Shown here one piece after another: positions 1,166-43,308 of a stretch of 59,554 nucleotides of DNA (within the stretch, counting starts at the first letter, position 1; each line of letters starts with the position of its first letter). The stretch lies in NCBI GenBank assembly GCA_019894885.1, contig JAGXNP010000002.1, positions 1 to 59,554 on the forward strand, written 5' to 3'. The stretch comes from Promethearchaeota archaeon. Its GTDB lineage: Archaea; Asgardarchaeota; Lokiarchaeia; Sigyniarchaeales; SOKP01. The position numbers were made by a program, and so were the translations under genes. A model generated the notes under the pieces. The model saw nothing but the letters and a program-made list of their open reading frames with translations. It searched no databases and was not told the DNA's origin.

Positions 1166-2599
1166 ATGACGAGATATTACCTTTTTATTCTAAAAGTTAT
1201 TAACGTACTTGTTTTCCTGTGGATTTTAATTATTTTTCTATCAATTTTTCATTTTGACGAAGTAATCACAACCAGTGAAGGAGAACTTGTTTTATCTTCA
1301 TTTCTGACTAGTTTAAGAAATATTTCGACATATATTATATTTACAGCAGCATATGGAGTTGCGTTTGTTTGTGTTATGGTCGCCTCTATTCTTTTTATTG
1401 CAGTTCAACCGTTCATGCGTACTTTATTAGATCAATTTTTTCGAGGATTGTTAAGTCTCTGGTTTACCTTTCCGAATGGTACCACACCGGAATTTAGTGA
1501 AATTCCAGATTTAATAGGTCAGGAATTCGCAGTATTCAGTGAAAATATCTATTTAATAGCATTTCAACTATTATTCATCATCGCTATCTATTACGCTATC
1601 AAAGCATTTCTGAGAACAGATCCAAAAAACGATATACGCGTTGTTGGAGCAATCGTTCTCATGTTGGTTATTCCACTTATGGTTTTTGGATTTAAAGATA
1701 TGCTAGAATTATTTAGTATACCTAGTCCATATTTTGACGATCTACCCTATCCTCTAGATCCATCATTAGAGGTGATTCCTATTGACAATATATTTCAATT
1801 TTTTGCCAGTCCTGTCATTCTTCTTGCAATTGCTTCTTATATATATTTAGAATTGGCTTTCCAAATAAATTATACATTCACTGTTACTAAACCATCCTTA
1901 GAAAGAAGTTATAGGTTAGAAGCTCAGTTAAGCGTGTTACAAAGTGAATCCTATTATATAACTGCAAATGTTGACAAAATTAAAGAAGAAGCAAAAAAAA
2001 GGAGACAGGAATTAAAAATTGATGAAAAAGCAACTATAGGAAAATTTTTCGCTAAGACAGGAGATAAGTTTTCTTATGTTAAGGAAATGATTGAAAAAAG
2101 GAAATTAGAGGACGAAGAAAAAAAATTAATTACCGCTGCTTCTAAGACGAGAAGACTTGGAAGATACTTACACCGACTTTTTCAAGAAGATAAAGAAGCA
2201 CGCGATAGTCTAACAGCCAGATCATCAGCACCTAAACCTAAAAGCCTAATAATTTCAACAGGTATCAATTTTATTTTCCGGGTTGGCTTACTGATAATCA
2301 TTAGCTTTATTATTATCCATCCAAAATGGTTCATGGAAAAAGTTTTTAATTTACCACCTGCTATCATTGAGAGTGTTGCAATGTTTTCTCCAGAAGTCAT
2401 AGTAATACTATTAATCCCATTGATACTAATATTCCCTGTGATTTCAAAGATTATCTCTTCAATAAAACATAGGAGTTTAATTATTCGGCTCCAACAAGAA
2501 GGTAGGATAAAAGAAATTCTAGCTTCAGTAGGGGATTATGTGAAGAAAGAAGAAATAAAAGAAGAAATAGATCTTGAAATTCAGGAAACTACAACGTGA
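1166..2599 (+). CDS. Polytopic membrane protein with central Lys/Glu-rich coiled-coil, unknown function
   Basis: 477-aa ORF starting 4 nt after the DUF58 stop, with GGGGAG SD-like sequence upstream. Hydrophobic helices at both ends flank a charged region (KIKEEAKKRRQELKIDEK...). No family motif recognised. Confidence 0.55.
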   Translation: MTRYYLFILKVINVLVFLWILIIFLSIFHFDEVITTSEGELVLSSFLTSLRNISTYIIFTAAYGVAFVCVMVASILFIAVQPFMRTLLDQFFRGLLSLWFTFPNGTTPEFSEIPDLIGQEFAVFSENIYLIAFQLLFIIAIYYAIKAFLRTDPKNDIRVVGAIVLMLVIPLMVFGFKDMLELFSIPSPYFDDLPYPLDPSLEVIPIDNIFQFFASPVILLAIASYIYLELAFQINYTFTVTKPSLERSYRLEAQLSVLQSESYYITANVDKIKEEAKKRRQELKIDEKATIGKFFAKTGDKFSYVKEMIEKRKLEDEEKKLITAASKTRRLGRYLHRLFQEDKEARDSLTARSSAPKPKSLIISTGINFIFRVGLLIIISFIIIHPKWFMEKVFNLPPAIIESVAMFSPEVIVILLIPLILIFPVISKIISSIKHRSLIIRLQQEGRIKEILASVGDYVKKEEIKEEIDLEIQETTT

Positions 2600-2610
2600 A
2601 GCCTACCATA

Positions 2611-3546
2611 TTATATTTCTAAATTAATTGTAAACTTTGCTATTTCTTTTTTTTTTTCTTTTGAGACCATTAAGGTATCAAAACAATAAGTGTTTATATC
2701 CATTTCCTTAATAATCGGCTTTAATGCACAATCTTTATTATCAATGATGAAATGGCTTATTATATCTCTATAATAATGCGCCACTCCAACACAAGAAACT
2801 TCGAGTCCCAGATGTTTCATCATTTTATCTGCTGGACCTTTTACTGTTGCCCCTTCTATAATTGGGCTTATAGCAATTACTTTTTGTTTGATGTTTTTTA
2901 AGGTTTTCCTAATTCCTGGAATCGTAAGTATAGTACCAATGGAGACTACAGGGTTCGAAGGACAAATTAGAACTCTCTCAGCATGCTTTATGTAATCGAG
3001 TACCCCCTTAACTGGTTTTGCTTTATCAATGCCTTGGAACTTAATGTCTAATATTCTTGGTCTACAATTATATCTAATGAAAAATTCTTCAAAATGCATT
3101 TCTTCTGAATCGGTTGTAATTATTGTTTGAACACTCTCATTAGTCATTGGTATAAGATGAGAAGTTATCCCCATTTTTTCAGCTATTTTCATAGTGATTT
3201 CTGCTTTACTAAATCCCTTCTTAAAAAGATCAGTTCTATATATGTGTGTCGCTAAGTCTTTGTCTCCTAAATTGAACCACTTAAAATCATAAAATTGTTT
3301 TAAAGATTTTAAACAATTAAAAGATTCGTCTTGAAAACCCCATCCTCTTTCTTTATCTACGATTCCCGCTAAAGTGTAAGTTATTATATCAATATCAGGG
3401 CAGATTTGTAAACCGTATAATTCTATATCGTCACCTGTATTTATAATGATCTTTAATAAAGCGGGATCAATTACATTAGCCAAACCTTCTATAAATTTAG
3501 CCGCTCCTACTCCACCTGCAAGTACTAAATAATAATTATCATCCAT
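2611..3546 (-). CDS. cofD: 2-phospho-L-lactate (or EPPG) transferase CofD, F420 biosynthesis
   Basis: 311 aa. N-terminal LAGGVGAAKF nucleotide-binding motif and overall CofD/YvcK-family pattern. Lies next to cofE. Confidence 0.85.
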   Translation of the reverse strand: MDDNYYLVLAGGVGAAKFIEGLANVIDPALLKIIINTGDDIELYGLQICPDIDIITYTLAGIVDKERGWGFQDESFNCLKSLKQFYDFKWFNLGDKDLATHIYRTDLFKKGFSKAEITMKIAEKMGITSHLIPMTNESVQTIITTDSEEMHFEEFFIRYNCRPRILDIKFQGIDKAKPVKGVLDYIKHAERVLICPSNPVVSIGTILTIPGIRKTLKNIKQKVIAISPIIEGATVKGPADKMMKHLGLEVSCVGVAHYYRDIISHFIIDNKDCALKPIIKEMDINTYCFDTLMVSKEKKKEIAKFTINLEI

Positions 3547-3556: not shown

Positions 3557-4972
3557 TCATTCTTCTTTACTTATCCTAAAGATAATATCTTTCAATTCCT
3601 TACGATAAGGTTTTTGAGTTGTTTTAGTCGAATAACCTACTGTAAAAAATGCCATAGGTACGAAAGAACTTGGCAGTTTCAGTACTTCCTTGAGAATTTT
3701 TTTTGCAAAAAAAGGTGCGCAATACCAGCACGCAGATAATCCTTTATTTTCAAATGCAAGAAGTAAATAGGTTGCTGAGGCGCTTACACTCTGCACTCCC
3801 ATAATATATTCATTAAATTCTCGTGTTTTATCTGAATAGGTCTCTAAATCGTGTGTATCCATGCATAGGAGTATTAAATAAGGTGAATTGAGAAATTGAT
3901 TTCTTGTTTTATTTATTTTCTTAAAAACATAATTATCTGATTTGCCTTCAGATATCAAATCTTCTTTCAATTTAGAATTCATCTTCTTAATCAAAGTTTC
4001 ACGAATCTTTCCCTTTTCAATTATAATATATCGCCAGAATTGACCATTGTGAGCACTTGGAGCCCATCGAGCTATATCTATACAGTCTTCTATCAGTTTA
4101 ATACTTATTTCTTTATCACCAAACTCTGATTTATAACTTCTCCGAGATTTAAGAATGGTTTCAAAATTCCCAGTTATATGTTTCTCTCTAAATAAATCTA
4201 TCTCGCTTTTTCTTAAAATTTGGTTTATAGAAGATTTTTCCATTATTGAATATTTATATCCCCTGATTATAACAACTGGTAGACCTTCATCCGCTTCTCC
4301 CATGACTAATTGAGCAGCAGAAGCTAAACTGTCAATATGTCCGATGATTGTACTCTGTAATTCTTTCCCATATAAATCCTTACTACCTCGCTTGTCCAAT
4401 ATTGGAGATATTCCCGAAACACCTAGGGCTACTCCTACTGCCCCCAATCTAAACGATCTTCCAAACGAGTCTGAAATTAATACAGCAATTTTTTTTTTTG
4501 TCAAATTTTGAAGTGAAATCCGGATTTTTTCGGCTTCTTTGTCTGAATCTAAAGGGAGCAAAGAAATTATATCCCCTTTTCCGACATTAGATTTATCAAT
4601 ACCTGCATTTGCACATATAAAACCGTGGTTCGTTTCAACAATCATTACATGCTCTGCTTTTAAAACTTGTCTCGATTCATCTAATATTGCTTGAATTAGC
4701 TTAGGACTTTTATCAGGCAAATTATTTTTTCTTATCAATGGAGCCATTATATCGTAGAGATCGAAAGCCTCCTGACTTGGAACGATATCTTCTATATTTC
4801 TTAGTCTTCCAAGACTTTTTGATATTATAGTTTGGGCGATAATCACAATGTCTCCATCTTCTAATGAGATACTGTTTTTTGTTAAAGCATTAAAAATTGT
4901 TGATGGAATATTGTCGCCGGTTTTTATTAGGGGGATATCTTCTACCCCGATAATTTCTATTTTTCCGCTCAT
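3557..4972 (-). CDS. cofE: F420-0:gamma-glutamyl ligase fused to a C-terminal nitroreductase-like domain (FbiB-type architecture)
   Basis: N-terminal ~250 aa is CofE-like (IIAQTIISK..., NAGID.SN, LLP.D.D). The C-terminal half carries the nitroreductase signature ARWAPSAHNGQFWRY. 10 nt upstream of cofD. Confidence 0.8.
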   Translation of the reverse strand: MSGKIEIIGVEDIPLIKTGDNIPSTIFNALTKNSISLEDGDIVIIAQTIISKSLGRLRNIEDIVPSQEAFDLYDIMAPLIRKNNLPDKSPKLIQAILDESRQVLKAEHVMIVETNHGFICANAGIDKSNVGKGDIISLLPLDSDKEAEKIRISLQNLTKKKIAVLISDSFGRSFRLGAVGVALGVSGISPILDKRGSKDLYGKELQSTIIGHIDSLASAAQLVMGEADEGLPVVIIRGYKYSIMEKSSINQILRKSEIDLFREKHITGNFETILKSRRSYKSEFGDKEISIKLIEDCIDIARWAPSAHNGQFWRYIIIEKGKIRETLIKKMNSKLKEDLISEGKSDNYVFKKINKTRNQFLNSPYLILLCMDTHDLETYSDKTREFNEYIMGVQSVSASATYLLLAFENKGLSACWYCAPFFAKKILKEVLKLPSSFVPMAFFTVGYSTKTTQKPYRKELKDIIFRISKEE

Positions 4973-4997: not shown

Positions 4998-6050
4998 TTA
5001 AATCTTATAATTCTTTAAATCTGAATCCTTGCTTTCTGCGTATTTTTCAAATTTATCTGGAATCGCACAACACGCTGAGAAGAAATTGAAGAAAACTTCA
5101 GGATCATAATTTTTTACCCATTTTAATGTATTTTTTGAAGGTATTTCAATCCTATTTATTCCAGCTTTAATAGCATATTTTTCTATCTCTAATTTCACTT
5201 CACCTCTTGGCCTCATACACCCTAAGGAAATTTCTGTGTCTGGGTAGACAAATCTAGTAATCGCACTAATTTTTGCGATATCACTTGGTTGAGGTCTTAG
5301 AAAATTATTTTCAGAATTATTTGGAGGGATTAAAGCAATCAATACTATTAACGAGGGATTCAATCCCGATTCTTTCAAAAACTTAATTGTTTCCAATTCT
5401 TTGTGAATCTTACCATAGAATAACCCTATACAAATGTGAGGAACGATATTTATTCCATATTTTTGCATGAAACTGATTGCTTTTTTATAATCGTCAATAT
5501 CTTTGTTTAAATGGTAAATATTGTTTATTATGTCTTTATCCATAGTAACATCAAAAGAAACGATATCAACTCCTACAAGTGCTAATTTTTTTGCAGTTTC
5601 TTCACTAAGCAACCCAGTATGAGCGTTGATTATTAAATTAGTTTTCTTCTTGATTTCTTTAATGGTATCTAAAAAGTTTAATAAAGGAACTGAACCATCG
5701 GGAAGACATCCTCCCGAAATTAAAACACCGATTCCATCGTTTTTGTATAATTTTAACAAATAGGATTTTAATTCGGAGTTATTCAGGATTGGTTTCATAT
5801 CTTTTAGATATTTTTTATTACAATGTTCGCAGTGTAATGAACATTCACTTCCAGTAATGCTGATGGCTGGAAACCGTTTGTTGGGGATATAAATTTTTAA
5901 TAGATTTCCAAATTTTCTCTTCTTTACTTTATAAGCAAGATTTAAAATCGTTTCTAATTCTCTATTATCAAGTTTTAACAATTTTTCATAATCTGACCAT
6001 GTTTGATTACCTAATTCAAATCTTTTAAATAGATCCTTAATATCATTCAT
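4998..6050 (-). CDS. Radical SAM protein, candidate subunit of a LipS1/LipS2-type lipoyl synthase
   Basis: CxxxCxxC motif (ECSLHCEHCN). ATG at 6050 overlaps the lplA stop as ATGAATGA, which I prefer to the track start at 6092. TIM-barrel-like radical SAM length. Confidence 0.65.
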   Translation of the reverse strand: MNDIKDLFKRFELGNQTWSDYEKLLKLDNRELETILNLAYKVKKRKFGNLLKIYIPNKRFPAISITGSECSLHCEHCNKKYLKDMKPILNNSELKSYLLKLYKNDGIGVLISGGCLPDGSVPLLNFLDTIKEIKKKTNLIINAHTGLLSEETAKKLALVGVDIVSFDVTMDKDIINNIYHLNKDIDDYKKAISFMQKYGINIVPHICIGLFYGKIHKELETIKFLKESGLNPSLIVLIALIPPNNSENNFLRPQPSDIAKISAITRFVYPDTEISLGCMRPRGEVKLEIEKYAIKAGINRIEIPSKNTLKWVKNYDPEVFFNFFSACCAIPDKFEKYAESKDSDLKNYKI

Positions 6051-6834
6051 ATTTTTCCAACCAATTCTTATTAGAATATTTTTTGGACACAAGTTTATCT
6101 GCTAAATCCAATTCATAATCTGTGAAATTTCCATCTATTAATTTAATTCCTAATGTCGCTTCGAAACCAGCTTTAAGATAACACAAGAAGTTCGTTTCAT
6201 CATATTGGTCTAATCGTTCTTTGATGCCGATGCACTTCGCAAATACAGATTTCACCATTTTAGTTTTCCCTACATTATAAGGTGCTTTTAAAACGGAATA
6301 CATAAGGTTAGGTTCAAGTTCCAATAAAATTGTTCCATGTTGAAGGAGATACCCCTTCTTTCTTATCTGTGCATTTCCTGAAAATTTCTTTCCATCTATA
6401 AAAATAGCAGGGCAATGAATAACTCCCTTTTGAGGTTGCAAGCCATATTGTGATAAAGCATTAACTATACCCGCCTCGATAATTTCAAATTGCTCAATCA
6501 CTTTCTTAGCGTTAAGGTTTTCTAGAAATTTCAGTGGACATACAATAGAATATGTAATTTCACGAGTACTATCATGAAATACAGCACCACCTCCTGTTAT
6601 CCTCCTTACAACATTAAAACCTTTTTCTTTAACAGTATTCAAATCTACTTCGTTAGAAATACTTTGATTTCTACCAATGGATACAGTTGATGGTTCCCAT
6701 TTAAAAAATCTTAGAGTATTAGGAATTTTTTTTTCTATAGCTGCATTTAGCATCGCTTCATCTAAAGCCATATTCCAATATCCATTTCTAGTTTCTAAGG
6801 GAAGAAATCTCCATTCTTTCAAGCCTTTTACCAC
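6043..6834 (-). CDS. lplA: Lipoate-protein ligase A, catalytic (N-terminal) domain type
   Basis: 263 aa. RRITGGGAVFHD and GKKFSGNAQ (lipoyl-AMP lysine region) motifs. GTG start overlaps the upstream radical-SAM stop by 1 nt (TAGTG). Confidence 0.85.
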   Translation of the reverse strand: MVKGLKEWRFLPLETRNGYWNMALDEAMLNAAIEKKIPNTLRFFKWEPSTVSIGRNQSISNEVDLNTVKEKGFNVVRRITGGGAVFHDSTREITYSIVCPLKFLENLNAKKVIEQFEIIEAGIVNALSQYGLQPQKGVIHCPAIFIDGKKFSGNAQIRKKGYLLQHGTILLELEPNLMYSVLKAPYNVGKTKMVKSVFAKCIGIKERLDQYDETNFLCYLKAGFEATLGIKLIDGNFTDYELDLADKLVSKKYSNKNWLEKYE

Positions 6835-7841
6835 TATTTTTTATGAATAGTATTAATTAAACTTTTAAAAATATCATCTATCTCATGTTTTAATAATGTT
6901 CTTGGATAATTATAAATGGGACCCGAAGGTCTTGATGTATAGTAAGGACGGTTGCAACCCGGACAGCCCGAAGTTAAAAACGCATCCGTATTGCAAATAA
7001 TATACCATAACTCCTTCTTAAATAAATTAAACTTAATAATTTCACCAAAATTATTAAAAGTAAAGTCCTTAAGAGTTCTATTATTGCTCACTAAAAGATA
7101 TCTTCCTAATTGTATTTTTCTAAAATTGAATAAATCTGGTTGGTTTAAATTTTCAAGTAATGTCCCTTTTATTGGCATAAATGCAAAAAGACTTACTCTT
7201 ATTCTTAAATCGTGAAGTTTCTTAATCATTTTCAGGATTTCAAGTGCAGTTTCTCCCAATCCCACTATTAAATGTGTTGTAACATTTCCCTCTCCAAAAA
7301 TTGTAAGCGCTTCTTTGAGATTTTGAATGTGGTTATCCCAATTATAAGGTCCTTTTACTATTTTTCCTTTTATGCGTTCAAAAATTTCAGGCGTAGCACC
7401 ATCAAGAGCTATACCCACCCTATCCACACCGAGAAGTTTTATTCTTTCTAAATTTTCTTTCCCCATCGGCGGTATTGCAGTAGATATTGGAATATTGCAT
7501 TTTTTTTTAATCTGGGTAACAATTTCTACAAGATCTTGAAAATTTTGCAAATAGTTTAAAGTTTGGATACAAATTCTTTTAAATCTTTTTGTGTGTGGCA
7601 GGTAATTTATTTTCGTCAAAAAATCTTTAAAATTAAAAACTGGCCAACTAACACGCGATAATAATTCAATGGAACTTTCTGATTCTCTAGCTTGTGGGCA
7701 AAAACCACAATTTGCACTGCAATGACCTGCTTTGTAGGTCATTAAATAGCATGTTGTAGGTACATCTTTAAATTTTTTAGTTTCATATAATCCAAGTATT
7801 GAAGCACTACCTATTGAAACCCTAATCTTTTCAACTGTCAC
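6834..7841 (-). CDS. Radical SAM protein (BioB/LipA-like), candidate second subunit of a LipS-type lipoyl synthase
   Basis: HCSANCGFCPQ CxxxCxxC motif, LIVGLGET motif typical of BioB/LipA-like enzymes, C-terminal Cys cluster CNTDAFLTSGCPGC. Overlaps the lplA start. Confidence 0.65.
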   Translation of the reverse strand: MTVEKIRVSIGSASILGLYETKKFKDVPTTCYLMTYKAGHCSANCGFCPQARESESSIELLSRVSWPVFNFKDFLTKINYLPHTKRFKRICIQTLNYLQNFQDLVEIVTQIKKKCNIPISTAIPPMGKENLERIKLLGVDRVGIALDGATPEIFERIKGKIVKGPYNWDNHIQNLKEALTIFGEGNVTTHLIVGLGETALEILKMIKKLHDLRIRVSLFAFMPIKGTLLENLNQPDLFNFRKIQLGRYLLVSNNRTLKDFTFNNFGEIIKFNLFKKELWYIICNTDAFLTSGCPGCNRPYYTSRPSGPIYNYPRTLLKHEIDDIFKSLINTIHKK

Positions 7842-7974
7842 TGGTCATACAAATTTTCAGTTACTAAAATCTTTTTTGTTAAAGAATATACCTCATTTCA
7901 AAAAAAATTTATTGTATAAATTATTTCAGTTTATATTTTTAACAAGTACATTATAAAAGATTATATGATATAAA

Positions 7975-13955: not shown

Positions 13956-14558
13956 TTATGAAGTGAATGAATGCTTTTTTTTAATTGCTTTCAATTCAGT
14001 AATTAACCAACATAATTCTTCGTATGTAGAAGAAGAATTTAAGATTTCTTGAGTTTTTTTCTCTATATCCTTCTTTGAAGTGATTTTTGGATACTTTAAT
14101 AAATTAAGCTGCAATTGGGCTAATATACTACATAATTCTTTATACGGTTTTTTTTCTTGAGAAAGCTTATGTGCTGCAATTGTGATTTCTCCCTCTAAAT
14201 CGGGATCTATTCCTGCTTCAATAAGCTCTACAGTCTCTTCATATTGTATCTCTAATTCTGGTCTTCTTTCTAAATTCTGCCTAGGTTTTATTCCTTTTTT
14301 TATAGAATTTTTTATAGCTAAGAATGAACCATATTCTTTATTTTGTTTTACTATTTGAATACTAATGGGTATCTCCTTTTTGTTGTTCAATAATTTTGCT
14401 TTATTAATCGACAACTCTTTTCTTTTCTTAGATATACTTGAACCTAACCACAAAAACAATGATTTTGCGTCATCTATTAAATACACTTCATCTTCTTTAA
14501 AATCTGCTTTACTAATTTTCTTAAGACCTCCTCTTACACCGACATTATATACTATCAT
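13956..14558 (-). CDS. Gelsolin/villin-type single-domain protein with helical C-terminal extension
   Basis: Residues ~15-85 (FKEDEVYLIDDAKSLFLWLGSSISKKRKELSINKAKLL...ISIQIVKQNKEYGSFLAIK) follow the gelsolin-repeat consensus (compare gelsolin G1: FFTGDAYVIL...YWLGNECSQDE...VQHREVQGFESATFLGYF). ATG start. Confidence 0.65.
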   Translation of the reverse strand: MIVYNVGVRGGLKKISKADFKEDEVYLIDDAKSLFLWLGSSISKKRKELSINKAKLLNNKKEIPISIQIVKQNKEYGSFLAIKNSIKKGIKPRQNLERRPELEIQYEETVELIEAGIDPDLEGEITIAAHKLSQEKKPYKELCSILAQLQLNLLKYPKITSKKDIEKKTQEILNSSSTYEELCWLITELKAIKKKHSFTS

Positions 14559-15965: not shown

Positions 15966-17441
15966 ATGGGAGCAGTTCAATGGTTATTAAAAAAGATCAC
16001 TAAAGTATTCGGTAGAAACACTACTTCTTTATATTATGTTCTTCTTTATCGTGAAATATTAAAAGAGATAAATGATATTACGAAAGATGAAGAGGATAGT
16101 ATTATTATACTTAGAGAGATCGGGAAGAAAGCTGCTACAGAATCATGTGAACGTCACACCACTGTTTTTAAATGGATGCCTGGGAGCCCAAGAAAAGTAA
16201 TTGAATATTTTGAACTTTTATGGGTTGTTGTTTTTGGAAAGGAATTAGAAGAGGGGGATTTAACTTACGAGGAACTTCCTAAAGAAAGCTCGAAATATAA
16301 CGATTATATTGTTAAGATAAAAAGTTGTCCACTTTGTGCAGGGTATGGGGCAGATGATGAGGATACTTTCAAATTTCAAAAAGTAACCAATAAAAATAGT
16401 GAAGGTCTTGCGTGCGGTTTAACGGGAATGTTAGAAAGTGTTGCTAATTTTATACTTAAAATAAAAAGGAGCGATTATAGAATTAATATTGTAGAGCAGA
16501 AGTGCTTAGCGAAAGGTGATGAGCATCTTCAGTTTATGTGTAAAATCTATGATTCTCTAGACTGGAAAGAGCTAAGTTCCGTTCGAATTCAAGATAAAAT
16601 TAAATCTGGAGTTAAATTTGAAGAGTCTATAGAAGAGGATGTTGTTCAAGAAACAAAGTTAGACATTATTGATAAACTTCAAGAAGTCTTATCTCTTGAT
16701 AAAATTGAGGAATTACTTGATGAACCCTTAGAGGGTATTAAGAGTAAAGTTGCTGAGATCATTGAAGATAAATTAAACATGGAACCCGAACACTTTTTCG
16801 ATTATTTTAGAAATTATGAGGACGATCTATTAAGAATCATTGGCTATCTCGCAGTTCACCTGCTTAATGAATATGGAGGATTAATCGAAAAAACTTTGAA
16901 AAATAGCACATTTGCTAAAATAGCAGGGTACCTTTTTAAACAATTAAGAGAATTTGTTTTATTGTTCATCCCTATTGATGTAATCAACGATTATCATCAA
17001 TTACTAATAAGTTTTCTTGATGGTTTAGCTCCAGCAGAGATGGTCGAGAATGTAAGACAATTCTCGGGTAAGGATGATATTAATTTTCTCTTTGAAGGAG
17101 CCCAAATGGCACTTGAAAATTTAGGAATTGACTTTTCAGAGCTAAAAGATAATGTTTGGGAAGAAATAAGAAAGGAAAGAGAAAACGGTTTACTTTCTTC
17201 GGATCAGTCAATGATGGAAAAAACTGAAGAAAACATCCCAAAAATTATAAAGATTATGCAAGAAATTTTAATGTTGTTAAGCGATATTTTAACGCTTCCA
17301 ATAAGAGTATTAATTTCTGAAAGCCATTATGGCCTTAAAACAGCTATTAACTCTGTAGTATCTGAAGAAGAAGGGTTGTTCGGGAGTATAAAAGATAGAA
17401 TTGATACAATTTTTGACTATGTTCAAGAATTAAAGCAATAA
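15966..17441 (+). CDS. V4R-domain protein (TRAPP Bet3-like) with ~300-aa acidic helical C-terminal extension
   Basis: N-terminal ~200 aa carry VKIKSCPLCAGYG...LACGLTGMLESVANFIL...EQKCLAKGDEHLQFMCKI, a classic V4R signature. The remainder is helical, Glu/Asp/Lys-rich and of no recognised family. Confidence 0.6.
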   Translation: MGAVQWLLKKITKVFGRNTTSLYYVLLYREILKEINDITKDEEDSIIILREIGKKAATESCERHTTVFKWMPGSPRKVIEYFELLWVVVFGKELEEGDLTYEELPKESSKYNDYIVKIKSCPLCAGYGADDEDTFKFQKVTNKNSEGLACGLTGMLESVANFILKIKRSDYRINIVEQKCLAKGDEHLQFMCKIYDSLDWKELSSVRIQDKIKSGVKFEESIEEDVVQETKLDIIDKLQEVLSLDKIEELLDEPLEGIKSKVAEIIEDKLNMEPEHFFDYFRNYEDDLLRIIGYLAVHLLNEYGGLIEKTLKNSTFAKIAGYLFKQLREFVLLFIPIDVINDYHQLLISFLDGLAPAEMVENVRQFSGKDDINFLFEGAQMALENLGIDFSELKDNVWEEIRKERENGLLSSDQSMMEKTEENIPKIIKIMQEILMLLSDILTLPIRVLISESHYGLKTAINSVVSEEEGLFGSIKDRIDTIFDYVQELKQ

Positions 17442-18423: not shown

Positions 18424-21006
18424 ATGAAAAATCTTGTAAAGAAAGCTGTAATAAAATTATCTATTTTTGTACCACTCGCAATTATCGTTATGACTATCTT
18501 TTCACTGCCATTAATGGGGATACCCCCGTTAGGTAACCTCTTATTTCCCGGTAACGGGGTATGGAAAGTTCCGGGAGAGCTTCCGGTGGCAGAAAGGTTA
18601 AATGTACATGGACTAAGAGGGGAAGTTACTGTTATTCGTGATGATTGGGGTATACCTCATATTTTTGCCGAATACGAAGAAGATCTCTTTTTTGCACAAG
18701 GTTATTGCCACGCTCAAGACAGATTATTCCAAATGGATATGTGGCGTCGTCAAGTGCGAGGAAGAATGTCAGAAATTTTAGGAGAGAGCATGCTAACCAG
18801 TGATAAAATCATGCTTGCGAGGGGTATGGAGGATTCAGCTATAAAAACTGATGAATTATTAAGGGAGATGTATAATAATGGAACACTTGAGTATTTCAGT
18901 TCATTTGAAAGGTATGTTGATGGAATAAATCTCTACATTGAATCCCATAACGATTTCAAACCATTAGAATACCATTTAATGGATTTCAAACCTACCAAAT
19001 GGACGACTGTTGACACGTTATGTTTAGTACAGGAAATGGCAAGACAGATGTCTTGGAATAATCATGATTTAGAAAGATATGTTACTTTACAATCCTTGAA
19101 TCATACATATTATAAGGAACTTTTTGGAGAGCCTTTACCTTATCAAATCCCAATAGTTCCCGATTACGGAGATTATCCAGAAAGCCCTATGAAAGCTGGA
19201 ATTGATTTGAAACCTAATACTGCTTTGAAATCAGAAATTTTAATCTTTCTAGAAAATATTCAAGAAATTGATTCAGAGAAAACCTTAATGGAGAACCAAA
19301 AAGAGCAAATAATTGGGTCAAATAATTGGGTTGTTAACGGCACTTTGAGCAATACAGGAGCCCCAATCCTCTGTAACGACATGCATCTTGCTTGGTTGAT
19401 GCCAGGAGTATGGTATGAGCAACACTTAAATGCTGAAGATACTGGATTTCATGTATATGGTTTCATAATACCTGGGATGCCTGGCGTTGCTGTAGGTCAT
19501 AATGAAAGGGTAGGTTGGGGATTTACAAACACAGGATATGATGTTATAGATTGGTACTATTATAATAAGGATGGACCAAATAACTACATTTACGACGGGG
19601 TATCGACAGCTTATACACAAAAAACATATAACATAAAAGTTAAAGATCAAGAAACAATTAAGTTCGTAGTTAACTATACTGTTCATGGACCTGTATTCAG
19701 TGATTTAATTAATTATGATTTGACATCATCTTTAGGAGACATTGTTTTGGCGCCAAAATGGACTGCTAACGGTTATTTTTTTAATATCCTTGCTGGTAAT
19801 GGGTTTGATCGAGCAAACAATAGAGCAGAATTTGACGAAGGTTCAAAATACTGGACTCTTCTTGCTCAAAATATTGTATACGCAGATGTAGATGGAAATA
19901 TTGCAATTAGACCAACAGGTAAGGTACCGATTAGAGATGATTCTAAAATCCCTCCAGGACATTATGGAAACGGATCACTCCCATACAATGGTTCAAACGG
20001 TGAAGGAGAATGGATTGGATATATCCCCTTTGAAGAATTACCTAATTCTTTTAATCCATCGCAAAAATATTTAGTTTCAGCAAATCAAATTGTCGTAGGA
20101 CCAGAATACAATAAATATTTCTTACAAAATGAATATGCAGATGGGTATAGAGCAAGAAGAATAAATGAACTTCTTATGAAAGCTAGTGATGGGTCTGTAA
20201 GTGTAGAGACTATGAAAAATATTCAAAACGATGTGAACTCAACTGCAGCGAGGGCGTTCATTCTAGAATTAATTGAAGTTATACACAATTATTATAGTCC
20301 TACAATTCCCACGAAAATCAATAATGTTCTCACTGAATTAGAAAGCTGGGGTTTTATAATGGATAAAGAAGAAAGCGCACCAACAATTTATCGTAAATGG
20401 AGAGATTTCTTCCAAGATTTTACATTTGACGACGAATCCACATTATATGGGATAAATATTCGCTCCAGAATTGTTGTATTAGAGTATTTAATGAAAGAAA
20501 ATGAATCTTCTCATTGGTTCAATAATATCTCCACGCCTGAAAATGAAACAAGAGATGATATAATGATTCAAGCATTAAATGCTACTATAGATTGGTTAGA
20601 AGATTTTTATAATTCAGATGATCCAACAACTTGGAGGTGGGGCGATCTTCATCAACTTTACTTCACCTCTCTTACTCAGTTAGATTTCTTAAGTAAAGGT
20701 CCTTATGAAGCCGATGGGGAAGGGTATACCATCAATCCTTCTGGGGTAAATATAGAAAATGGAGTAGGGTACGCAAGAAGCGGAGCGTCTGAGCGACTTA
20801 TTATCGACTTTAGCGACTTAAATAATTCTTTAAGCGTAATTCCATCAGGACAACGAGGACTTTCAAACTCAAAACACTATTCAGATCAACTAGAACAACT
20901 TTTCTTACAAGGTAAATATCATTATCAATATTTCACAAACACATTATACAACTTTCCTACCAGTTCAATTGAATCTAAATTATATTTCTTTCCAACTGGA
21001 GGTTAA
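18424..21006 (+). CDS. Penicillin/cephalosporin (or AHL) acylase family Ntn-hydrolase
   Basis: 860 aa. N-terminal TM/signal anchor. DxWGIPHI, AQDRLFQMD and the autoprocessing site GSNNWVV (beta-chain N-terminal Ser). Confidence 0.85.
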   Translation: MKNLVKKAVIKLSIFVPLAIIVMTIFSLPLMGIPPLGNLLFPGNGVWKVPGELPVAERLNVHGLRGEVTVIRDDWGIPHIFAEYEEDLFFAQGYCHAQDRLFQMDMWRRQVRGRMSEILGESMLTSDKIMLARGMEDSAIKTDELLREMYNNGTLEYFSSFERYVDGINLYIESHNDFKPLEYHLMDFKPTKWTTVDTLCLVQEMARQMSWNNHDLERYVTLQSLNHTYYKELFGEPLPYQIPIVPDYGDYPESPMKAGIDLKPNTALKSEILIFLENIQEIDSEKTLMENQKEQIIGSNNWVVNGTLSNTGAPILCNDMHLAWLMPGVWYEQHLNAEDTGFHVYGFIIPGMPGVAVGHNERVGWGFTNTGYDVIDWYYYNKDGPNNYIYDGVSTAYTQKTYNIKVKDQETIKFVVNYTVHGPVFSDLINYDLTSSLGDIVLAPKWTANGYFFNILAGNGFDRANNRAEFDEGSKYWTLLAQNIVYADVDGNIAIRPTGKVPIRDDSKIPPGHYGNGSLPYNGSNGEGEWIGYIPFEELPNSFNPSQKYLVSANQIVVGPEYNKYFLQNEYADGYRARRINELLMKASDGSVSVETMKNIQNDVNSTAARAFILELIEVIHNYYSPTIPTKINNVLTELESWGFIMDKEESAPTIYRKWRDFFQDFTFDDESTLYGINIRSRIVVLEYLMKENESSHWFNNISTPENETRDDIMIQALNATIDWLEDFYNSDDPTTWRWGDLHQLYFTSLTQLDFLSKGPYEADGEGYTINPSGVNIENGVGYARSGASERLIIDFSDLNNSLSVIPSGQRGLSNSKHYSDQLEQLFLQGKYHYQYFTNTLYNFPTSSIESKLYFFPTGG
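20998..21003 (+). promoter_or_regulatory. Shine-Dalgarno-like GGAGGT, 7 nt upstream of ATG 21011
   Basis: Located in the last codons of the acylase gene. Confidence 0.5.
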
Positions 21007-21503: not shown

Positions 21504-21875
21504 CTAATCTAAAAGTGAAGCAATCCTATTGGAAACGCTCTGGATATTTAGAAAAACCATACCTAAACTAGAATTAGCGCTACAAAGCGTACATAAAATA
21601 GCGTTATCACCTGCTTTAGAGAGAACAATAATTCCATTTAGACCTTCGATAAGGATTCTTTTTAACTCACCCCTATCAAGTTCTTCAACCGCTCGCTCTG
21701 ACACGCTCTGTATAGCTGCTGACATCGCAGAAACTATACCATCATTCACATTACGGCTTAAAACGGAACAAATTGGAAGTCCTTGAACACTAACTATAGC
21801 GGAACCCTCTATATCACTATTTACTGCTGATAATTTTCTTAGTAAATCCGTGAGTTCGCTAATATTCTCAGACAA
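21504..21875 (-). CDS. Roadblock/LC7 (MglB-like) domain protein
   Basis: 123 aa. Typical pattern ...IEGSAIVSVQGLPICS...SAMSAAIQSVSERAVEEL..G.LKRILIEG.NG.IVLSKAG.NAIL. Only a TTG start is available in frame. Confidence 0.75.
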   Translation of the reverse strand: MSENISELTDLLRKLSAVNSDIEGSAIVSVQGLPICSVLSRNVNDGIVSAMSAAIQSVSERAVEELDRGELKRILIEGLNGIIVLSKAGDNAILCTLCSANSSLGMVFLNIQSVSNRIASLLD

Positions 21876-26543: not shown

Positions 26544-26759
26544 TTACGAGGGGGTAAACAACCAATTAAAAATACCTAACCAAGCAAAAATGACTATCAA
26601 TATTAAAGCAACAGCAAAAATTACAGTTGTTATCGGGCTAATTTTAATTCCAATTGAACTATCCTCAAAAAACCTCATTAAACCAGCGCCTCCTAAAGGC
26701 ATTGGTGCGTTTCCGCTTCTCCTTTTTTTGCGTTTTGATTGGCTGCGTTGAGACGACAT
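26544..26759 (-). CDS. Protein translocase subunit Sec61beta (archaeal SecG)
   Basis: 71 aa. Basic N-terminus, conserved GGAGLMRFFED motif, then a single C-terminal TM (tail-anchor layout). Confidence 0.75.
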   Translation of the reverse strand: MSSQRSQSKRKKRRSGNAPMPLGGAGLMRFFEDSSIGIKISPITTVIFAVALILIVIFAWLGIFNWLFTPS

Positions 26760-26911
26760 TTATAATTTTCTCAATTATTTTTATAATATAAATAAATTTA
26801 AAACAACACAAATAATAAGTTTTATCTCGAATCATATAAATAAATTTAATAAATTTTTATTAATGGTATTAATTATTGTTAGTTAATTCGAGTTTACAAA
26901 GGAATTTAATT

Positions 26912-28774
26912 ATGAGAAGAAAAAGTTTTTTCATTATATTTATTGGATTTTTATCTTTTATAATCGTATTCTCAGCTATTCAAGATGATTTTTCATATAA
27001 TTATCAACATGATTTATTAGTTGAAGACCCTCAACAATCAAGGACTTTAGAAGGAGCAGATAACCTTTTAGTGGTGAATATGGTAAGAACCACTAATTTA
27101 AGTTCCTATGGTTTAGTAAATATAAAAGATAGGCTAACAATCTTAAATAATAATAACAATCCGATTAATTCAATTTTATTTGGATTAAAGGTTGAACATT
27201 CAAATGATTTAATTTATTTTAACGCTTTTGGTGAAGCAAAGAACACACTTTTAATCGAAAGATCCCACGAAATAATGGACATTTACGAAATGATAACTAT
27301 TTATTTTGATATGCCTTTACTACCATCGCAAAAAATTACTTTTACTGTTTTGCATTCATATACGAATTTAATATCTTATCAGTTTGCTTTTATTGAAGAA
27401 GATATCACTCAACTTTTAGTATTTAAAGGATCATTGTTTCCTCTTTTACCCTATAAGAGCGAAGGAAACATTAAATCAAATTATCTGTTACCAGAAGGGT
27501 CAACGTTATATTCTCATACACAAATTGGGCCAATGGGAGTTCCGTTGGAGGGAACTAATGTATTATACGATTTAGAAGCAAATTTAGAAATTAACTATTT
27601 AGAGCCCTTTTTACTAAACTTAGATGAGAATAACGAAACAACTATTTCTGTAGACGATAGGTTATCATCAAAATTAGAAATAGAAAAGATAAACAAGGAT
27701 ATTTACATATCTCCCTGGGGTATTATTAAAAATATTGAAGAAATTACGATTGAAAATGCTGGAATTGTTGAAGTTGCTCTATTATCAATGAAAATTCCAA
27801 TCGATGCAATAAATGTAAAAGTTTATGACGATCTGGGAGAGGTCTTAGGAGTATCCCTTATAGATTCTATTGATGATGTTTCAACAAAAATTGTTTCTAT
27901 TCAATTATACCAGAATAGAGTTTCGCTGACACCGGCATCAAAATTTAAGTTTTTTCTAGAATATTATCTACCCCCTGAAAAATATATATCCTACAATTGG
28001 CTACAACAATCCATTTCAATAAACTTACTTACGACAAAATATGAATATTTAATATACGAACAAACTACCAATGTATTTATCGAAGGTTGTGCTAGTGTTG
28101 ACTATATGTCTTCACTACCAGAAGCTTTGCATAACTCAGGAAATTCCAAAGTTTTAGTATACAGCACAGAAAACATAAGTCCAATAGTAAAGAAAAATGT
28201 ACTCCTTACTTTTACTATTGATTTATTTGAAATATTTCTTAGACCTGTTGTGTTCGTTATGATCATTGCCTTATTGTCATCTATTTTCGTTCTAGCAATT
28301 AAAACTCTAAAAAGAGAGGAACAAGTATCGATCTTCAAAAAAGAATTCATCCCAACAAGTGAAATTAGAGAATTTTGTTCATTGTACGAAGAGAGCAATG
28401 CATTAGTGTTAGAAATTAGAAAAGCAGAAAGTGAGACAAAACGCAAGAAATTAGCAAAAAAGACTTATAAAAATTTATTAAGCAAAAACACGTCAAAAAT
28501 TGACCAGATTAAAGAAGAAATAAACCCTTTTAAGAAAATATTGATGGAGACTAACGATACATTCAATAATATTGTAAAAAGACTTGATGTGTTAGATGCC
28601 GAAAGAATTAGTATTTCGGATAGCTTAAATCTCTTGGAGACTCGATATAAAAGAGGAAAATTACCTTCTAAAGCAGCCTACCAAAAATTATCAATTGATT
28701 TCTTCAATAGACGAAAAAAATTAGATAGAACGATCGATAAGTATATTCAACAGCTAAGAAGTTATTTATTGTAA
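26912..28774 (+). CDS. Ribophorin I (OST1)-like protein
   Basis: ATG at 26912 is preferred to the TTG at 26876. Signal anchor, ~430-aa lumenal-type domain, one TM ([18 protein letters not shown]), ~150-aa charged coiled tail, the same layout as RPN1/Ost1. Local matches to human RPN1: [22 protein letters not shown] vs [23 protein letters not shown], and [12 protein letters not shown] vs VSHWGNIAVEE. Confidence 0.65.
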   Translation: [620 protein letters not shown]

Positions 28775-29609: not shown

Positions 29610-30956
29610 ATGATTCGGCTATCCTCTATGAATTGGGGTATTTTAGAAACAATTTACCTAGTTATATCTTTCATTGTTGGATTTGTTATAACATTAGTAA
29701 TTATCCCTTATATCATAAGAATCATGAAACGGAAAGGATATACAGGGATAGATATACATAAGACATTAAAAACTGAAGTTCCCGAATCTGGTGGGATTTC
29801 TATTATCATTGGTATATCAATTACTGCTATTTTACTGACTATATTTTTCCCAGATTTCTTTAATGAAATCTTGATTTTTGTTTTAACAGTAGTAATTTCT
29901 GGTTTTATTGGTTATATAGATGACAGAATCAAATTAAGATCAAGATACAAGCTGTTGTTAACAATTTTAACAGGAATAGTGATATTTTTAGCAAACTCTG
30001 TTGGTTTTATACAAATCGAATCTCCTACAATTCCCTTTTTGGGAAAATTAAGATTAAATGTTTTATATCCAATTCTCGTTCCTTTGATCGTTGCTGTTTT
30101 TGCTAATACAGTCAATATGTTAGAAGGATACAATGGTGAAGGCTCAGGGACATCGATTATTGCTTTATTTTCCTTGATGATTTGCTCTATTATATGGGAC
30201 TCCGCAGAAGGTTTATTATTTACAGTTATATCTTTAGCAATATTAATACCATTTTTCTTATATAACAAGTTTCCAGCTAAAATTTTTCCAGGGGATGTTG
30301 GAACACTAAGTATTGGAGCAATTTTTGCTTCTATCGCTCTGATTGGTTCTCTTGAATCAGCAGTTTTTTGTGCATTACTTATTCATATATTTAATAGCTT
30401 TTATGTCATTTATTCTGTAAAGGGGTTTTTCGAAAGTAGTGAAATTTCAGACAATAGAAGCGACATTTTATTATTAGAAAACGATTTTATAAAGGCTTCA
30501 GATCTAAAAAGCGCTGCTTTGACATTACCTCGGTTAATATTAGCTAAAGGACCAATGAAAGAACCAGATTTAGTCAAAAACTTCTACATAATTACGATAA
30601 TTTGTGGATTTTTTGCTATTTTAACCACGCTATTGATGGTTTCAACAACAACTCTTATCACAATAGCGATAATATGTGGTTTTTTTGGATTAATTACGGT
30701 AATTTTGTTGTATAAGTATCCTAGAATAAGGGGGATAGTAGTTCTCATGTTAATTTTAATCTTAGTAGGGTATTTATATCTTGTTGCTATTGATTTATTT
30801 ATCATCCCCATAGATTTTATAGATATTAATATTTTTGGTTTAGTAATACCTACTAATATTCTAATATCCTTAATTATAGTAATACCTGGACTTTTACTGT
30901 GGTATTATATCACTATTAAATACTTTTGGTCTGAAATTAATAAAATGAAGAAATAA
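29610..30956 (+). CDS. UDP-GlcNAc:dolichyl-phosphate GlcNAc-1-phosphate transferase (ALG7/AglH, MraY-WecA superfamily) with extra C-terminal TM region
   Basis: 448 aa, polytopic. GYIDDRIKL, NTVNMLEGYNGEGSG and FPGDVGTLSIGA motifs of polyprenyl-P sugar-1-P transferases. The last ~130 aa add extra TM helices. Confidence 0.75.
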   Translation: MIRLSSMNWGILETIYLVISFIVGFVITLVIIPYIIRIMKRKGYTGIDIHKTLKTEVPESGGISIIIGISITAILLTIFFPDFFNEILIFVLTVVISGFIGYIDDRIKLRSRYKLLLTILTGIVIFLANSVGFIQIESPTIPFLGKLRLNVLYPILVPLIVAVFANTVNMLEGYNGEGSGTSIIALFSLMICSIIWDSAEGLLFTVISLAILIPFFLYNKFPAKIFPGDVGTLSIGAIFASIALIGSLESAVFCALLIHIFNSFYVIYSVKGFFESSEISDNRSDILLLENDFIKASDLKSAALTLPRLILAKGPMKEPDLVKNFYIITIICGFFAILTTLLMVSTTTLITIAIICGFFGLITVILLYKYPRIRGIVVLMLILILVGYLYLVAIDLFIIPIDFIDINIFGLVIPTNILISLIIVIPGLLLWYYITIKYFWSEINKMKK

Positions 30957-36679: not shown

Positions 36680-38425
36680 ATGGAAATGGAAAAAAAAAAT
36701 TTAGCAATCGTAATACTAGCTGTAGCTTTAGTTGCGTCTGGTGTTGGTAACATAATATTCGGAGTTATAATGGGTGGTATACAACCTCTTCCACCGGAAC
36801 AACCCTCTGCCATTATATATGGTACAATGTATGGACCTGAAGATGCAGATCCACAATACATGTGGGATTCCGCTTCATTTGACTATGCATTCAATGTCTG
36901 GGAAGGTTTATTTGCCTATAATCTAAGCGATCCTGATGTTCCTATGATTCCAATGCTAGCAACAGATTTTGGAGTTTGGGATGGAAATGTCATAACTTTA
37001 AACCTTCGACAAGGGGTAGATTTTCATTCTGGAACTCATTTTAATGCTACTTCAGTTAAATTCTCACTTGACAGATTAGCCTATTTATGCAACTTCACTG
37101 GTACTCAAGGAGAAGGAGATACATTGTATGGAGTATCAATCATAGAATCGATTTATATGTGGCCAGACGGTACACCTGTTATCGATCATGTAGATATTAT
37201 TTCTGAATATGTTGTTGACATTACATTATCTAAGCCATATGGTGTCTTCTTACCAATATTAACCTTTACAGCTGCTATGATGATGGACTATGAAATTACA
37301 CCTGCCGATGATTATATTTGCGAAGGAATGGCGGGAGCATATGGATACTATGAAGGTCCCTACAATGTTCTGGAAAACGACCCTACAATTTCTGGAACTG
37401 GTCCTTGGAAATTTCAATATTACGCTTCCGGTATAGAAGCCAAACTCATTAGAAATGATGATTATTGGCGAGGAGCTGGAGATATAGAAACTTTAATATT
37501 TTCAGTTATACAAGACTCTGACGCAAGAAATAGTGCTGTATTAGCTGGAGATATTAATATCTTATTAGATCCTCATCCCTCTTATTATGATGTTATGAGA
37601 GATGATCCCGCTATAACACTCACTGAAGGCTTACCTGGTACCATTACCCAGTATCTTGGATTCAATAACAAACTATACAACAAAACCTGGAGAAGCGCGA
37701 TGTCGTATGCAATTGATTACGATTACATGATCGAGGAGCTCTTAGAAGGTGAAGCAGTACGATTAAAATCACCAGTTCCTTTAGGAATTCAATTTGCCGA
37801 CTGGTCATTTGATGTTCCTGTTTTAGACCTGACAATCGCTCGAGCCTTTATGACGAGTATGGGTTTTGGAACAGGTTTTACAACAGAAACTGATTGGACA
37901 GATGTAGCCGCAGGGACAACTCCTTTCTTAACGGTTAACTTTACATATAACCTAGGAAATCAATTCAGAGAAGATATGTTAGTGTTATTACAAGGTAATC
38001 TAGCAAAGATCGGAATTAAAGTCACAGATAGCGGTCAGGAATGGGGACCATACTTGGACCTCCTTTATGATAGAATTCCTAATGGATGGAATAAATTATC
38101 TATCTGGTTTATTGGATGGATGCCCGACTATAACGATCCAAGCAACTATGTGAATTCGTTAATGGCCAATTATTCGTCTTCAAACTCTGCTCAAATAAAC
38201 GATCCGACATTAGAGGCTTATATGTTAGCAGGACTCGAGGAAACTGATCAAAATGTAAGAGAACAGATTTACAAGGATCTTCAACAATACGTAGTCGAAG
38301 AACTTAGACCCTGGGCTTTTGGATATGTAAGCAGAAACTTTGATGCGAATTATCTTACATTGAAAGGTTTCCCAACTAACGGTATGGGCTATGCATACTT
38401 CTATCCGTGCTATTATGACTTATAA
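36680..38425 (+). CDS. ABC transporter substrate-binding protein, family 5 (Opp/Dpp/Nik-type)
   Basis: 581 aa. N-terminal TM anchor, then a typical SBP_bac_5 pattern (EGLF, W.DG.P.T..DV..S..R, GTGP(W/Y)KF, ...NDP). Confidence 0.85.
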   Translation: MEMEKKNLAIVILAVALVASGVGNIIFGVIMGGIQPLPPEQPSAIIYGTMYGPEDADPQYMWDSASFDYAFNVWEGLFAYNLSDPDVPMIPMLATDFGVWDGNVITLNLRQGVDFHSGTHFNATSVKFSLDRLAYLCNFTGTQGEGDTLYGVSIIESIYMWPDGTPVIDHVDIISEYVVDITLSKPYGVFLPILTFTAAMMMDYEITPADDYICEGMAGAYGYYEGPYNVLENDPTISGTGPWKFQYYASGIEAKLIRNDDYWRGAGDIETLIFSVIQDSDARNSAVLAGDINILLDPHPSYYDVMRDDPAITLTEGLPGTITQYLGFNNKLYNKTWRSAMSYAIDYDYMIEELLEGEAVRLKSPVPLGIQFADWSFDVPVLDLTIARAFMTSMGFGTGFTTETDWTDVAAGTTPFLTVNFTYNLGNQFREDMLVLLQGNLAKIGIKVTDSGQEWGPYLDLLYDRIPNGWNKLSIWFIGWMPDYNDPSNYVNSLMANYSSSNSAQINDPTLEAYMLAGLEETDQNVREQIYKDLQQYVVEELRPWAFGYVSRNFDANYLTLKGFPTNGMGYAYFYPCYYDL

Positions 38426-38467
38426 GAAACGGAAGTATTGAAAATCAATATTAAGAATCAAAAAAAC

Positions 38468-38477
38468 TTTTTTTTTT
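38468..38477 (+). terminator. T10 tract downstream of the SBP gene
   Basis: aaaaaacTTTTTTTTTTatt lies ~43 nt after the stop. Possible attenuating or terminating oligo-T inside the operon. Confidence 0.35.
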
Positions 38478-38526
38478 ATTATTATATTATATTTAAGATT
38501 TTAAATAGAAAACAAATGATTTTTTA

Positions 38527-43302: not shown

Positions 43303-43308
43303 AATTTA

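Follow-up and report, generated by a model that had tools for sequence, protein, structure and literature searches.

We analyzed a stretch of 59,554 nucleotides of a Promethearchaeota archaeon (Lokiarchaeia; assembly GCA_019894885.1, contig JAGXNP010000002.1), which is called the window in the following. On its minus strand, three close-packed genes were found, the outer two encoding radical S-adenosylmethionine (SAM) proteins and the middle one a protein of the LplA/LipM family. This gene order had been given in a preliminary description of the DNA and was confirmed by the open reading frames (ORFs) and their motifs. The locus is very probably a lipoyl-cofactor assembly operon, which consists of lipS2, a gene for a LipM-like transferase and lipS1, followed by cofE and cofD. 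The positions of these genes and of other features of the window are listed in the table.

Table. Genes and features of the window (aa, amino acids; nt, nucleotides)
Feature	Position	Strand	Description
lipS2	6834..7841	-	335 aa, GTG start; predicted LipS2 radical-SAM sulfur-insertion enzyme, first step, C8 of octanoyl-lysine
Middle gene	6043..6834	-	263 aa, GTG start; LplA/LipM-family catalytic domain, no accessory domain; catalytic Lys K150; C141-P142
lipS1	4998..6050	-	350 aa from ATG at 6050; predicted LipS1 radical-SAM enzyme, second step, C6
Junction lipS2/middle gene	6832..6836	-	TAGTG, 1-nt overlap if GTG is the start; alternative TTG at 6822
Junction middle gene/lipS1	6043..6050	-	8-nt stop/start overlap ATGAATGA, read from the sequence; translational coupling
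Intergenic region lipS2/leuS	7842..7974	.	AT-rich, divergent; presumed promoter region, on the basis of position only
cofE fusion	3557..4972	-	cofE with nitroreductase-like domain (FbiB-type); starts 25 nt after the lipS1 stop, behind GGAG
cofD	2611..3546	-	2-phospho-L-lactate transferase, 10 nt after cofE; TIGR01819 314.8 bits (cut-off 257.45)
gcvH	56656..57057	+	Pfam GCV_H 84.9 bits; lipoyl-lysine K68 in VESSKAV; likely acceptor, from context
Eukaryotic signature proteins	26876..28774; 26547..26759; 57255..57782; 21504..21875; 13956..14558	+; -; -; -; -	Ribophorin I, Sec61-beta, OST3/OST6, Roadblock/LC7
GT4-family glycosyltransferase	29610..30956		Near ribophorin I
RadA/Rad51-family paralogues	50400..51092; 54889..55686	+; +	Two short paralogues, 4 kb apart
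ABC importer operon	36680..44385	+	Full oligopeptide/dipeptide type; solute-binding protein, two permeases, two ATPases
860-aa protein	18424..21006	+	Weak partial match to PvdQ-type Ntn-hydrolase acylases, 56 bits
Large ORFs	1166..2599; 15966..17441; 47138..49395		No family match; near the 860-aa protein

The LipS1/LipS2 lipoyl synthase of Thermococcus kodakarensis was reportedly described by Jin et al. in 2020. In this organism, LipS2 (TK2248) thiolates the C8 of octanoyl-lysine and LipS1 (TK2109) then thiolates the C6, with 5'-deoxyadenosyl radicals derived from SAM and sacrificial auxiliary [4Fe-4S] clusters, and the cluster ligands of both proteins were defined by mutagenesis (Neti et al., 2022; PMC9585515). 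The upstream radical-SAM ORF of the window contains the motifs CSANCGFC and LIVGLGET, the downstream one CSLHCEHC. Against the equivalog hidden Markov models (HMMs) of NCBIfam, the upstream ORF reaches 329.5 bits for LipS2 (NF053743; cut-off 270; model positions 1-292 of 292) and the downstream ORF 268.2 bits for LipS1 (NF053742; cut-off 230; model positions 1-268 of 268). If the two models are crossed, each ORF reaches only about 18 bits. For comparison by BLASTP, the sequences of TK2109 and TK2248 were taken from the supplement of Neti et al. (2022), and errors of optical character recognition were corrected against the printed DNA; the numbering then reproduces the C27/C31/C34 of that paper. 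The window LipS2 is 41% identical to its T. kodakarensis counterpart over 310 aa (E = 7e-77) and the window LipS1 is 38% identical to its counterpart over 283 aa (E = 1.5e-63). The window LipS2 matches the T. kodakarensis LipS1 with an E-value of 1e-5, and the window LipS1 has no significant BLASTP match to the T. kodakarensis LipS2.

All cluster ligands defined by mutagenesis in T. kodakarensis are present in both window proteins, as an alignment of the kind proposed earlier showed. In LipS2, the radical-SAM motif CX3CX2C is formed by C41/C45/C48 (C39/C43/C46 in T. kodakarensis) and the auxiliary-cluster ligands are C91, C293 and C296 (C85, C276 and C279). In LipS1, the same motif is formed by C70/C74/C77 (C27/C31/C34) and the auxiliary cluster is held by H205, C278, C327 and C328 (H159, C230, C276 and C277). 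In a collected set of homologues with 31-74% identity, these ligands are invariant across 28 LipS2 sequences and kept across 20 LipS1 sequences, one of which has an alignment gap at C327/C328. Cysteines that are not ligands vary among the homologues. This corrects the C-terminal cysteine triad which had been described for LipS2: C293 and C296 are invariant, C283 is not conserved, and the third ligand is C91. A search of solved structures revealed no LipS1 or LipS2 structure in the PDB and only weak matches to BioB. Since both equivalog cut-offs are passed, the characterised T. kodakarensis proteins are matched and all ligands are conserved, the two ORFs are assigned as predicted orthologues of LipS2 and LipS1, which would form a two-protein lipoyl synthase replacing LipA. 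With this, the core of the earlier proposal, a LipS1/LipS2-type synthase, holds.

Neither a LipA gene nor a further radical-SAM gene was found in the 59.5-kb window. The LipS2 ORF scores 15 bits with the LipA model TIGR00510 (cut-off 310) and also misses the cut-off of PRK05481 (203), and the LipS1 ORF has no match to the LipA models. The claim that the window lacks a canonical LipA is borne out by these family scans.

The stop/start overlaps TAGTG and ATGAATGA, which had been reported for the two junctions, were read directly in the sequence. The last letter of the lipS2 stop codon TAG, at position 6834, is also the first letter of the GTG that opens the middle gene. An alternative start of the middle gene, TTG at 6822, would give a protein beginning with MKEWRF, and relatives have a matching MEKWRF. 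The junction varies among the relatives, in which the two genes either overlap by 1 nt or are separated by 2 nt or by 13-16 nt. The 8-nt overlap of the middle gene with lipS1 is kept as ATGAATGA, ATGACTGA or ATGAGTAA in the related loci L003-L005, L011 and L012. Translational coupling on both sides of the middle gene had been suggested; the overlap is conserved on the lipS1 side, but not on the lipS2 side. The term "fusing", which had been used for the two subunits and the ligase, is loose, as the genes are separate and overlapping.

In the ORF list, the lipS1 frame opens at an upstream TTG (6092; 4998..6092, 364 aa). The 350-aa product was also called by an independent gene caller on two identical metagenome contigs, and the frame is closed just 5' of the equivalent of the ATG in more distant relatives. 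Together with the ATGAATGA overlap, these observations place the start of lipS1 at the ATG at 6050 and not at the TTG. Upstream of lipS2, the divergent gene is leuS. The same order of genes was seen wherever a related locus has enough flanking sequence, so that the arrangement is more than chance. Synteny of lipS1 and lipS2 with a gene of the ligase/octanoyltransferase family was found in the window, in L001-L008, L011 and L012 and in 15 of the 17 metagenome loci of the Asgard-type class A1 described below. An Rfam scan of the window gave no match. A scan of the window for bacterial promoters and terminators stayed at chance level; these are bacterial models, which do not apply to an archaeon. 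Among sequencing runs, the locus was found only in DNA metagenomes, from permafrost, soil and marine sediment.

The middle protein contains the catalytic domain LplA-B_cat (PF21948; 136.7 bits) as its sole Pfam domain. The catalytic lysine is located within GKKFSGNAQ and aligns with K145 of the Thermoplasma acidophilum LplA. The cysteine of C141-P142 lies 9 residues before this lysine. This cysteine is present without exception in 121 close and 19 distant homologues. An alignment of class A (defined below) that extends down to 32% identity has only 32 invariant columns, which include C141 and P142. Metagenome-assembled genomes (MAGs) of Lokiarchaeota, Promethearchaeota and Hermodarchaeota are the named sources of homologues of the middle protein. 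The best pairwise score was obtained with the LipM of Brevibacillus (152 bits, 32% identity), whose gene adjoins gcvPA-gcvPB; the T. acidophilum LplA follows with 98.6 bits over its full length (30.5% identity). Among solved structures, this LplA is the best match, again over the full length (E 1e-21). The curated NCBIfam ligase models (LplA_large and lipoyltransferase) are failed by the middle protein, with 180.3 against 480 bits for NF053750 and 132.9 against 280 bits for TIGR00545. NCBIfam contains no model for LipM, and a LipM homologue from Bacillus itself matches only LplA models, below their cut-offs. LipM of Bacillus subtilis (HAMAP MF_02118) is an octanoyl-acyl carrier protein (ACP):GcvH octanoyltransferase with the active-site residues C150 and K165. 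Exactly these two residues are carried by the fetched sequence of a LipM homologue from Bacillus sp.

We searched in two ways for LplB, the accessory subunit on which archaeal ligases of the LplA type depend. The 33 unassigned small frames of the window were concatenated and scanned with Pfam, where no PF10437 (LplB) was found at E ≤ 1; the scan did detect its internal controls GcvH, thioredoxin, Roadblock, Sec61-beta and MazG. In addition, a local LplB HMM was built from four small ORFs which adjoin ligase genes in metagenome loci. Two of these seeds pass the LplB model of NCBIfam (NF053749; 76.7 and 84.4 against 65 bits) and three match PF10437, two of them above threshold. When the window and L001-L012 were translated in all six frames, none of the frames of 40 aa or more matched this HMM.

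From 150 diverse representatives of a full-library HMMER search with the middle protein, three motif classes were drawn. Class A, which includes the window protein, has a cysteine 9 residues before the catalytic lysine, in HCPA or CPN, and the motif RRxxGGG. Class B has a cysteine 15 residues before the lysine, in ACFDAPSWYE, and RRxTGG[RK]; it comprises bacterial LipM, including the Brevibacillus and Bacillus genes. Class C has no cysteine in the loop, which reads PINDIVV, and has GGG; some members are longer by about 90-100 residues at one end, which corresponds in size to an LplB domain. Classes A and C were then compared by their neighbourhoods in 81 metagenome loci, of which 80 came from the metagenome scan and one is L014. 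The 17 loci of the Asgard-type class A1 contain no LplB, LipS2 in 15 and LipS1 in 11 cases. Among the 43 loci of class A2, LplB was again not detected; LipS2 is present in two and LipS1 in one. In class C (21 loci) LplB is present in 20, where it adjoins the ligase gene except in L082, and LipS2 and LipS1 were found in 12 and 11; the one locus without LplB ends at the contig edge. Thus LplB was found in 0 of 60 loci of the Cys(-9) type versus 20 of 21 Cys-less loci. The middle gene and LipS1 directly adjoin each other in class A1, with no space for an extra gene in between. The Cys(-9) archaeal LipM-like class and an adjacent LplB are mutually exclusive, and a Cys-Pro 9 residues before the lysine is invariant in this class. 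Both observations are new additions of the present analysis.

Class A2 (L031, L032, L034-L037, L039 and others) is a second class without LplB, with the motif DFNxGDxKxCPN. Its neighbourhood is of a housekeeping kind, with cysS, a gene for a JAB/MPN-like protein and the genes of ribosomal proteins S7 and S12, and in 41 of the 43 loci no lipS genes adjoin. The class presumably belongs to another archaeal lineage. LipM-type proteins are listed in Bathyarchaeia by the census of Tanabe et al. (2023; PMC10332631).

The lack of LplB, the invariant Cys-Pro near the lysine and the closer relation to LipM of Bacillales than to the Thermoplasma LplA suggest that the middle protein is most likely an LplB-independent acyl- or octanoyl(lipoyl)transferase with its own Cys-Lys pair, and not a salvage ligase. 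The gene had been described as lplA with a role in salvage. This part of the preliminary description is not supported: LplB is found neither in the window nor in the class loci, and the Lokiarchaeia gene is classed as LipM, with Lpl = 0, by Tanabe et al. (2023). Several points weigh against the transferase and the operon as proposed here. The middle protein has the ligase-type loop RRxTGGGAVFHD and not the RRxTGG[RK] of bacterial LipM. Its C141 is at position -9 and not -15 from the lysine. Owing to a loop that is shorter by about 23 residues, C141 does not share a column with LipM C150 in the MAFFT alignment; the two nucleophiles are therefore not proven, and not claimed, to be homologous. 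The middle protein is thus called a LipM-like candidate here, not a proven member of LipM proper. That 59.5 kb contain no LplB is no proof that the genome lacks it, since in T. kodakarensis the gene for LplB is not linked to that for LplA (Tanabe et al., 2023). Finally, all catalytic steps of the window proteins are assigned by orthology.

A different function of the middle gene must be weighed against this. It may encode an ATP-dependent lipoate/octanoate:protein ligase, acting alone or with an LplB encoded elsewhere, so that the cassette would serve an sLpl-LipS1/S2 scavenging of free octanoate. The solved-structure match to the T. acidophilum LplA, the ligase-type RRITGGGAVFHD loop with the catalytic lysine and the unlinked lplA and lplB of T. 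kodakarensis all speak for such a ligase. Moreover, a "LipM" protein of the census, from Iainarchaeota, adjoins LplB (Tanabe et al., 2023), which means that HMM labels alone are not decisive. However, LplB occurs in neither the window nor the 60 class loci, compared with 20 of 21 loci of the sister class, and the invariant Cys-Pro stands in the place of the I-N-D of the ligase class. The T. acidophilum LplA by itself is reportedly unable to adenylate, a finding attributed to Christensen and Cronan in 2009, and this also weighs against a ligase. In addition, the census, which had PF10437 among its models, gives Lpl = 0 for Lokiarchaeia, including the closed genome of P. syntrophicum (Tanabe et al., 2023). 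Altogether, we regard a ligase as unlikely, but as an explanation that deserves to be kept in mind.

For the radical-SAM pair, membership in another BioB-like family (biotin synthase, HydE, PylB, HmdB or CofG/CofH) without a role in lipoate synthesis is highly improbable. Such a pair would fit the weak matches to BioB, PylB and HmdB, the fact that BioB is the sole solved-structure match and the F420 genes downstream. BioB, HydE and CofG/CofH identities were considered since cofE and cofD follow, and were rejected on the basis of the HMM scores. With the BioB model TIGR00433 (cut-off 225), the LipS2 ORF reaches 68.1 bits and the LipS1 ORF 51.2 bits; the NCBIfam matches to PylB, HmdB and MoaA are far under their cut-offs, and the CofG/CofH and HydE models match neither ORF. 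The alternatives which had been named earlier thus fail, whereas both ORFs exceed the cut-offs of their LipS models and keep the auxiliary ligands specific to LipS, and in every relative the two genes lie on either side of a lipoate-family transferase gene. It was also considered whether the cassette matures LbpA of the sHdr sulfur oxidation instead of GcvH or E2 proteins, as LipS1/S2 were first noticed in sulfur oxidisers containing sHdr (Tanabe et al., 2023). In Prometheoarchaeum and most Lokiarchaeia, however, the same census gives LbpA1, LbpA2 and sHdr = 0 and GcvH = 1, and in the window GcvH is encoded and nothing similar to sHdr was found. A role in LbpA maturation is therefore very hard to credit.

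For the operon of a LipM-like transferase with LipS2 and LipS1, we propose a pathway of three steps. In the first step, the middle protein would octanoylate the conserved lysine of apo-GcvH and perhaps also that of E2 proteins. This would be an acyl transfer via a thioester of acyl-Cys141, with the octanoate taken from a thioester donor, and not an ATP-dependent ligation. In the second step, LipS2 would cleave SAM at the [4Fe-4S] cluster of C41/C45/C48. The 5'-deoxyadenosyl radical would take the hydrogen from C8, and a sulfur of the auxiliary cluster (C91/C293/C296) would yield 8-mercaptooctanoyl-lysine. In the third step, LipS1, with its clusters at C70/C74/C77 and H205/C278/C327/C328, would add the C6 sulfur and thereby complete the lipoyl group. 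The second and third steps were shown for the T. kodakarensis orthologues and are predicted for the window proteins; the pair of LipS2 and LipS1 would stand in for LipA. The gene for the acceptor GcvH, which had been placed at 56656, was found there by its Pfam domain and K68. It is located about 49 kb from the lipS operon and is unlinked to it.

It is quite conceivable, if somewhat short of probable, that the archaeal LipM-like proteins without LplB (the Asgard type with HCPA and the second archaeal type with CPN) are independently evolved Cys-Lys acyltransferases, which would load GcvH via acyl-Cys141 from a non-ACP thioester, e.g., octanoyl-CoA. If this is true, archaea without ACP, including the closest prokaryotic relatives of eukaryotes, would gain a genuine route of de novo lipoylation. 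The value of the annotation itself is small, as LipS1/LipS2 were biochemically established in 2020-2022 and NCBI models are curated for both subunits. The source of the octanoyl group in archaea lacking ACP, however, is a question left open by Tanabe et al. (2023). For this question, the locus is a compact test case with three overlapping genes and GcvH on one contig, and the invariant Cys-Pro of the class without LplB is a concrete residue which can be mutated.

Downstream of lipS1, the cofE fusion passes NF009809 (280 bits; cut-off 274) and TIGR01916 (260.8 bits; cut-off 180.65) and contains the Pfam domains F420_ligase and Nitroreductase. Together with cofD, it probably shares a transcript with the lipS operon, yet belongs to a separate pathway, that of F420. 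The FbiB-type fusion of cofE with a nitroreductase is unusual for archaea. Adjacency of lipS1 to cofE/cofD was observed in the window and in L007, L011, L012, L015-L024, L027 and L030. In L027 and L030 it survives down to 43-48% identity, with the cofE-cofD pair on the opposite strand. In L011, the ATG of cofE overlaps the lipS1 stop. The CofE half was missed by the gene caller in L011 and L012; the frame is intact in L011. The conserved adjacency might reflect a functional tie between F420 and LipS, e.g., in electron supply, or alternatively mere synteny of the lineage.

At 87-90% identity, the nearest genomic relatives of the locus come from MAGs under the labels Promethearchaeia or Promethearchaeota, from one "uncultured archaeon" and from a contig mislabelled as actinobacterium. 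The locus L003 (DATKTW010000073.1) is titled "Candidatus Nanopelagicaceae bacterium" and encodes a LipS2 which is 90% identical to that of the window; it is probably a mis-binned or mislabelled MAG contig. Several other genes of the window are listed in the table. Among them are eukaryotic signature proteins which are typical of Asgard archaea, and the product of L001 at 2178..2780, the counterpart of one window gene in this list, has a weak match to a gelsolin domain. The signature proteins, together with the labels of the relatives, identify the host as an Asgard archaeon of the Loki type. One of the two RadA/Rad51-family paralogues is RadB-like (230 aa) and the other (265 aa) has a Rad51 domain. 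The peptide importer fits a peptide-fermenting lifestyle.

Tanabe et al. (2023) describe the order lipS2-lplA-lplB-lipS1 as typical of archaea. They also report that some Asgardarchaeota are without a ligase and that lipS1/S2 co-occur there with a LipM-type octanoyltransferase, whose archaeal substrate they leave open because archaea generally lack ACP. In their S3 Table, Prometheoarchaeum syntrophicum and most Lokiarchaeia have LipA 0, Lpl 0, LipM 1, LipS1 1, LipS2 1, GcvH 1 and sHdr 0. The per-gene table of the same study contains a "LipSM" cluster of Lokiarchaeia, in which the protein next to LipS1 has a HAMAP LipM score of 215 (threshold 130). The LipM and LipS1/S2 cassette of Lokiarchaeia is thus already known from these tables. 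The earlier interpretation of the locus as a cassette of candidate subunits was largely right, but not novel, since lipS2-ligase/transferase-lipS1 is a typical archaeal arrangement (Tanabe et al., 2023).

Among known systems, the window belongs to the type with LipM and LipS1/S2 and does not differ in any essential point from the LipSM clusters that Tanabe et al. (2023) report for Asgardarchaeota, Thermoproteota and Thermoplasmatota. With the T. kodakarensis LipS1/LipS2 it shares a BioB-like radical-SAM pair with equal CX3CX2C motifs, the auxiliary ligands and the expected order of C8 and then C6. It differs by extensions of 43 aa at the N-terminus and about 20 aa at the C-terminus of LipS1. 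Moreover, T. kodakarensis uses a bipartite LplA-LplB ligase with unclustered genes (Tanabe et al., 2023), whereas the window has three overlapping genes and no LplB was found in it. The middle protein resembles LipM of B. subtilis in consisting of the catalytic domain only (about 260-280 aa), in having a cysteine in the loop before the lysine and in its likely acceptor GcvH. It differs in the position of the cysteine (-9 instead of -15), the loop shorter by about 23 residues and GGG instead of GG[RK], and octanoyl-ACP is not to be assumed as donor in an archaeon (Tanabe et al., 2023). With the T. acidophilum LplA (PDB 2ARS and 3R07) it has in common the fold family, the length, the loop RRxTGGGAV(F/Y)HD and the catalytic lysine. 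That enzyme, in contrast, needs LplB and has no cysteine in the loop, whereas the window protein has C141 and no LplB nearby. LipA, finally, brings about the same net conversion of octanoyl-lysine, and it too belongs to the radical-SAM enzymes and sacrifices an auxiliary [4Fe-4S] cluster. Here, however, one protein suffices, its motifs are CX4CX5C and RSSY, and the sulfur at C6 is introduced before that at C8 (Neti et al., 2022).

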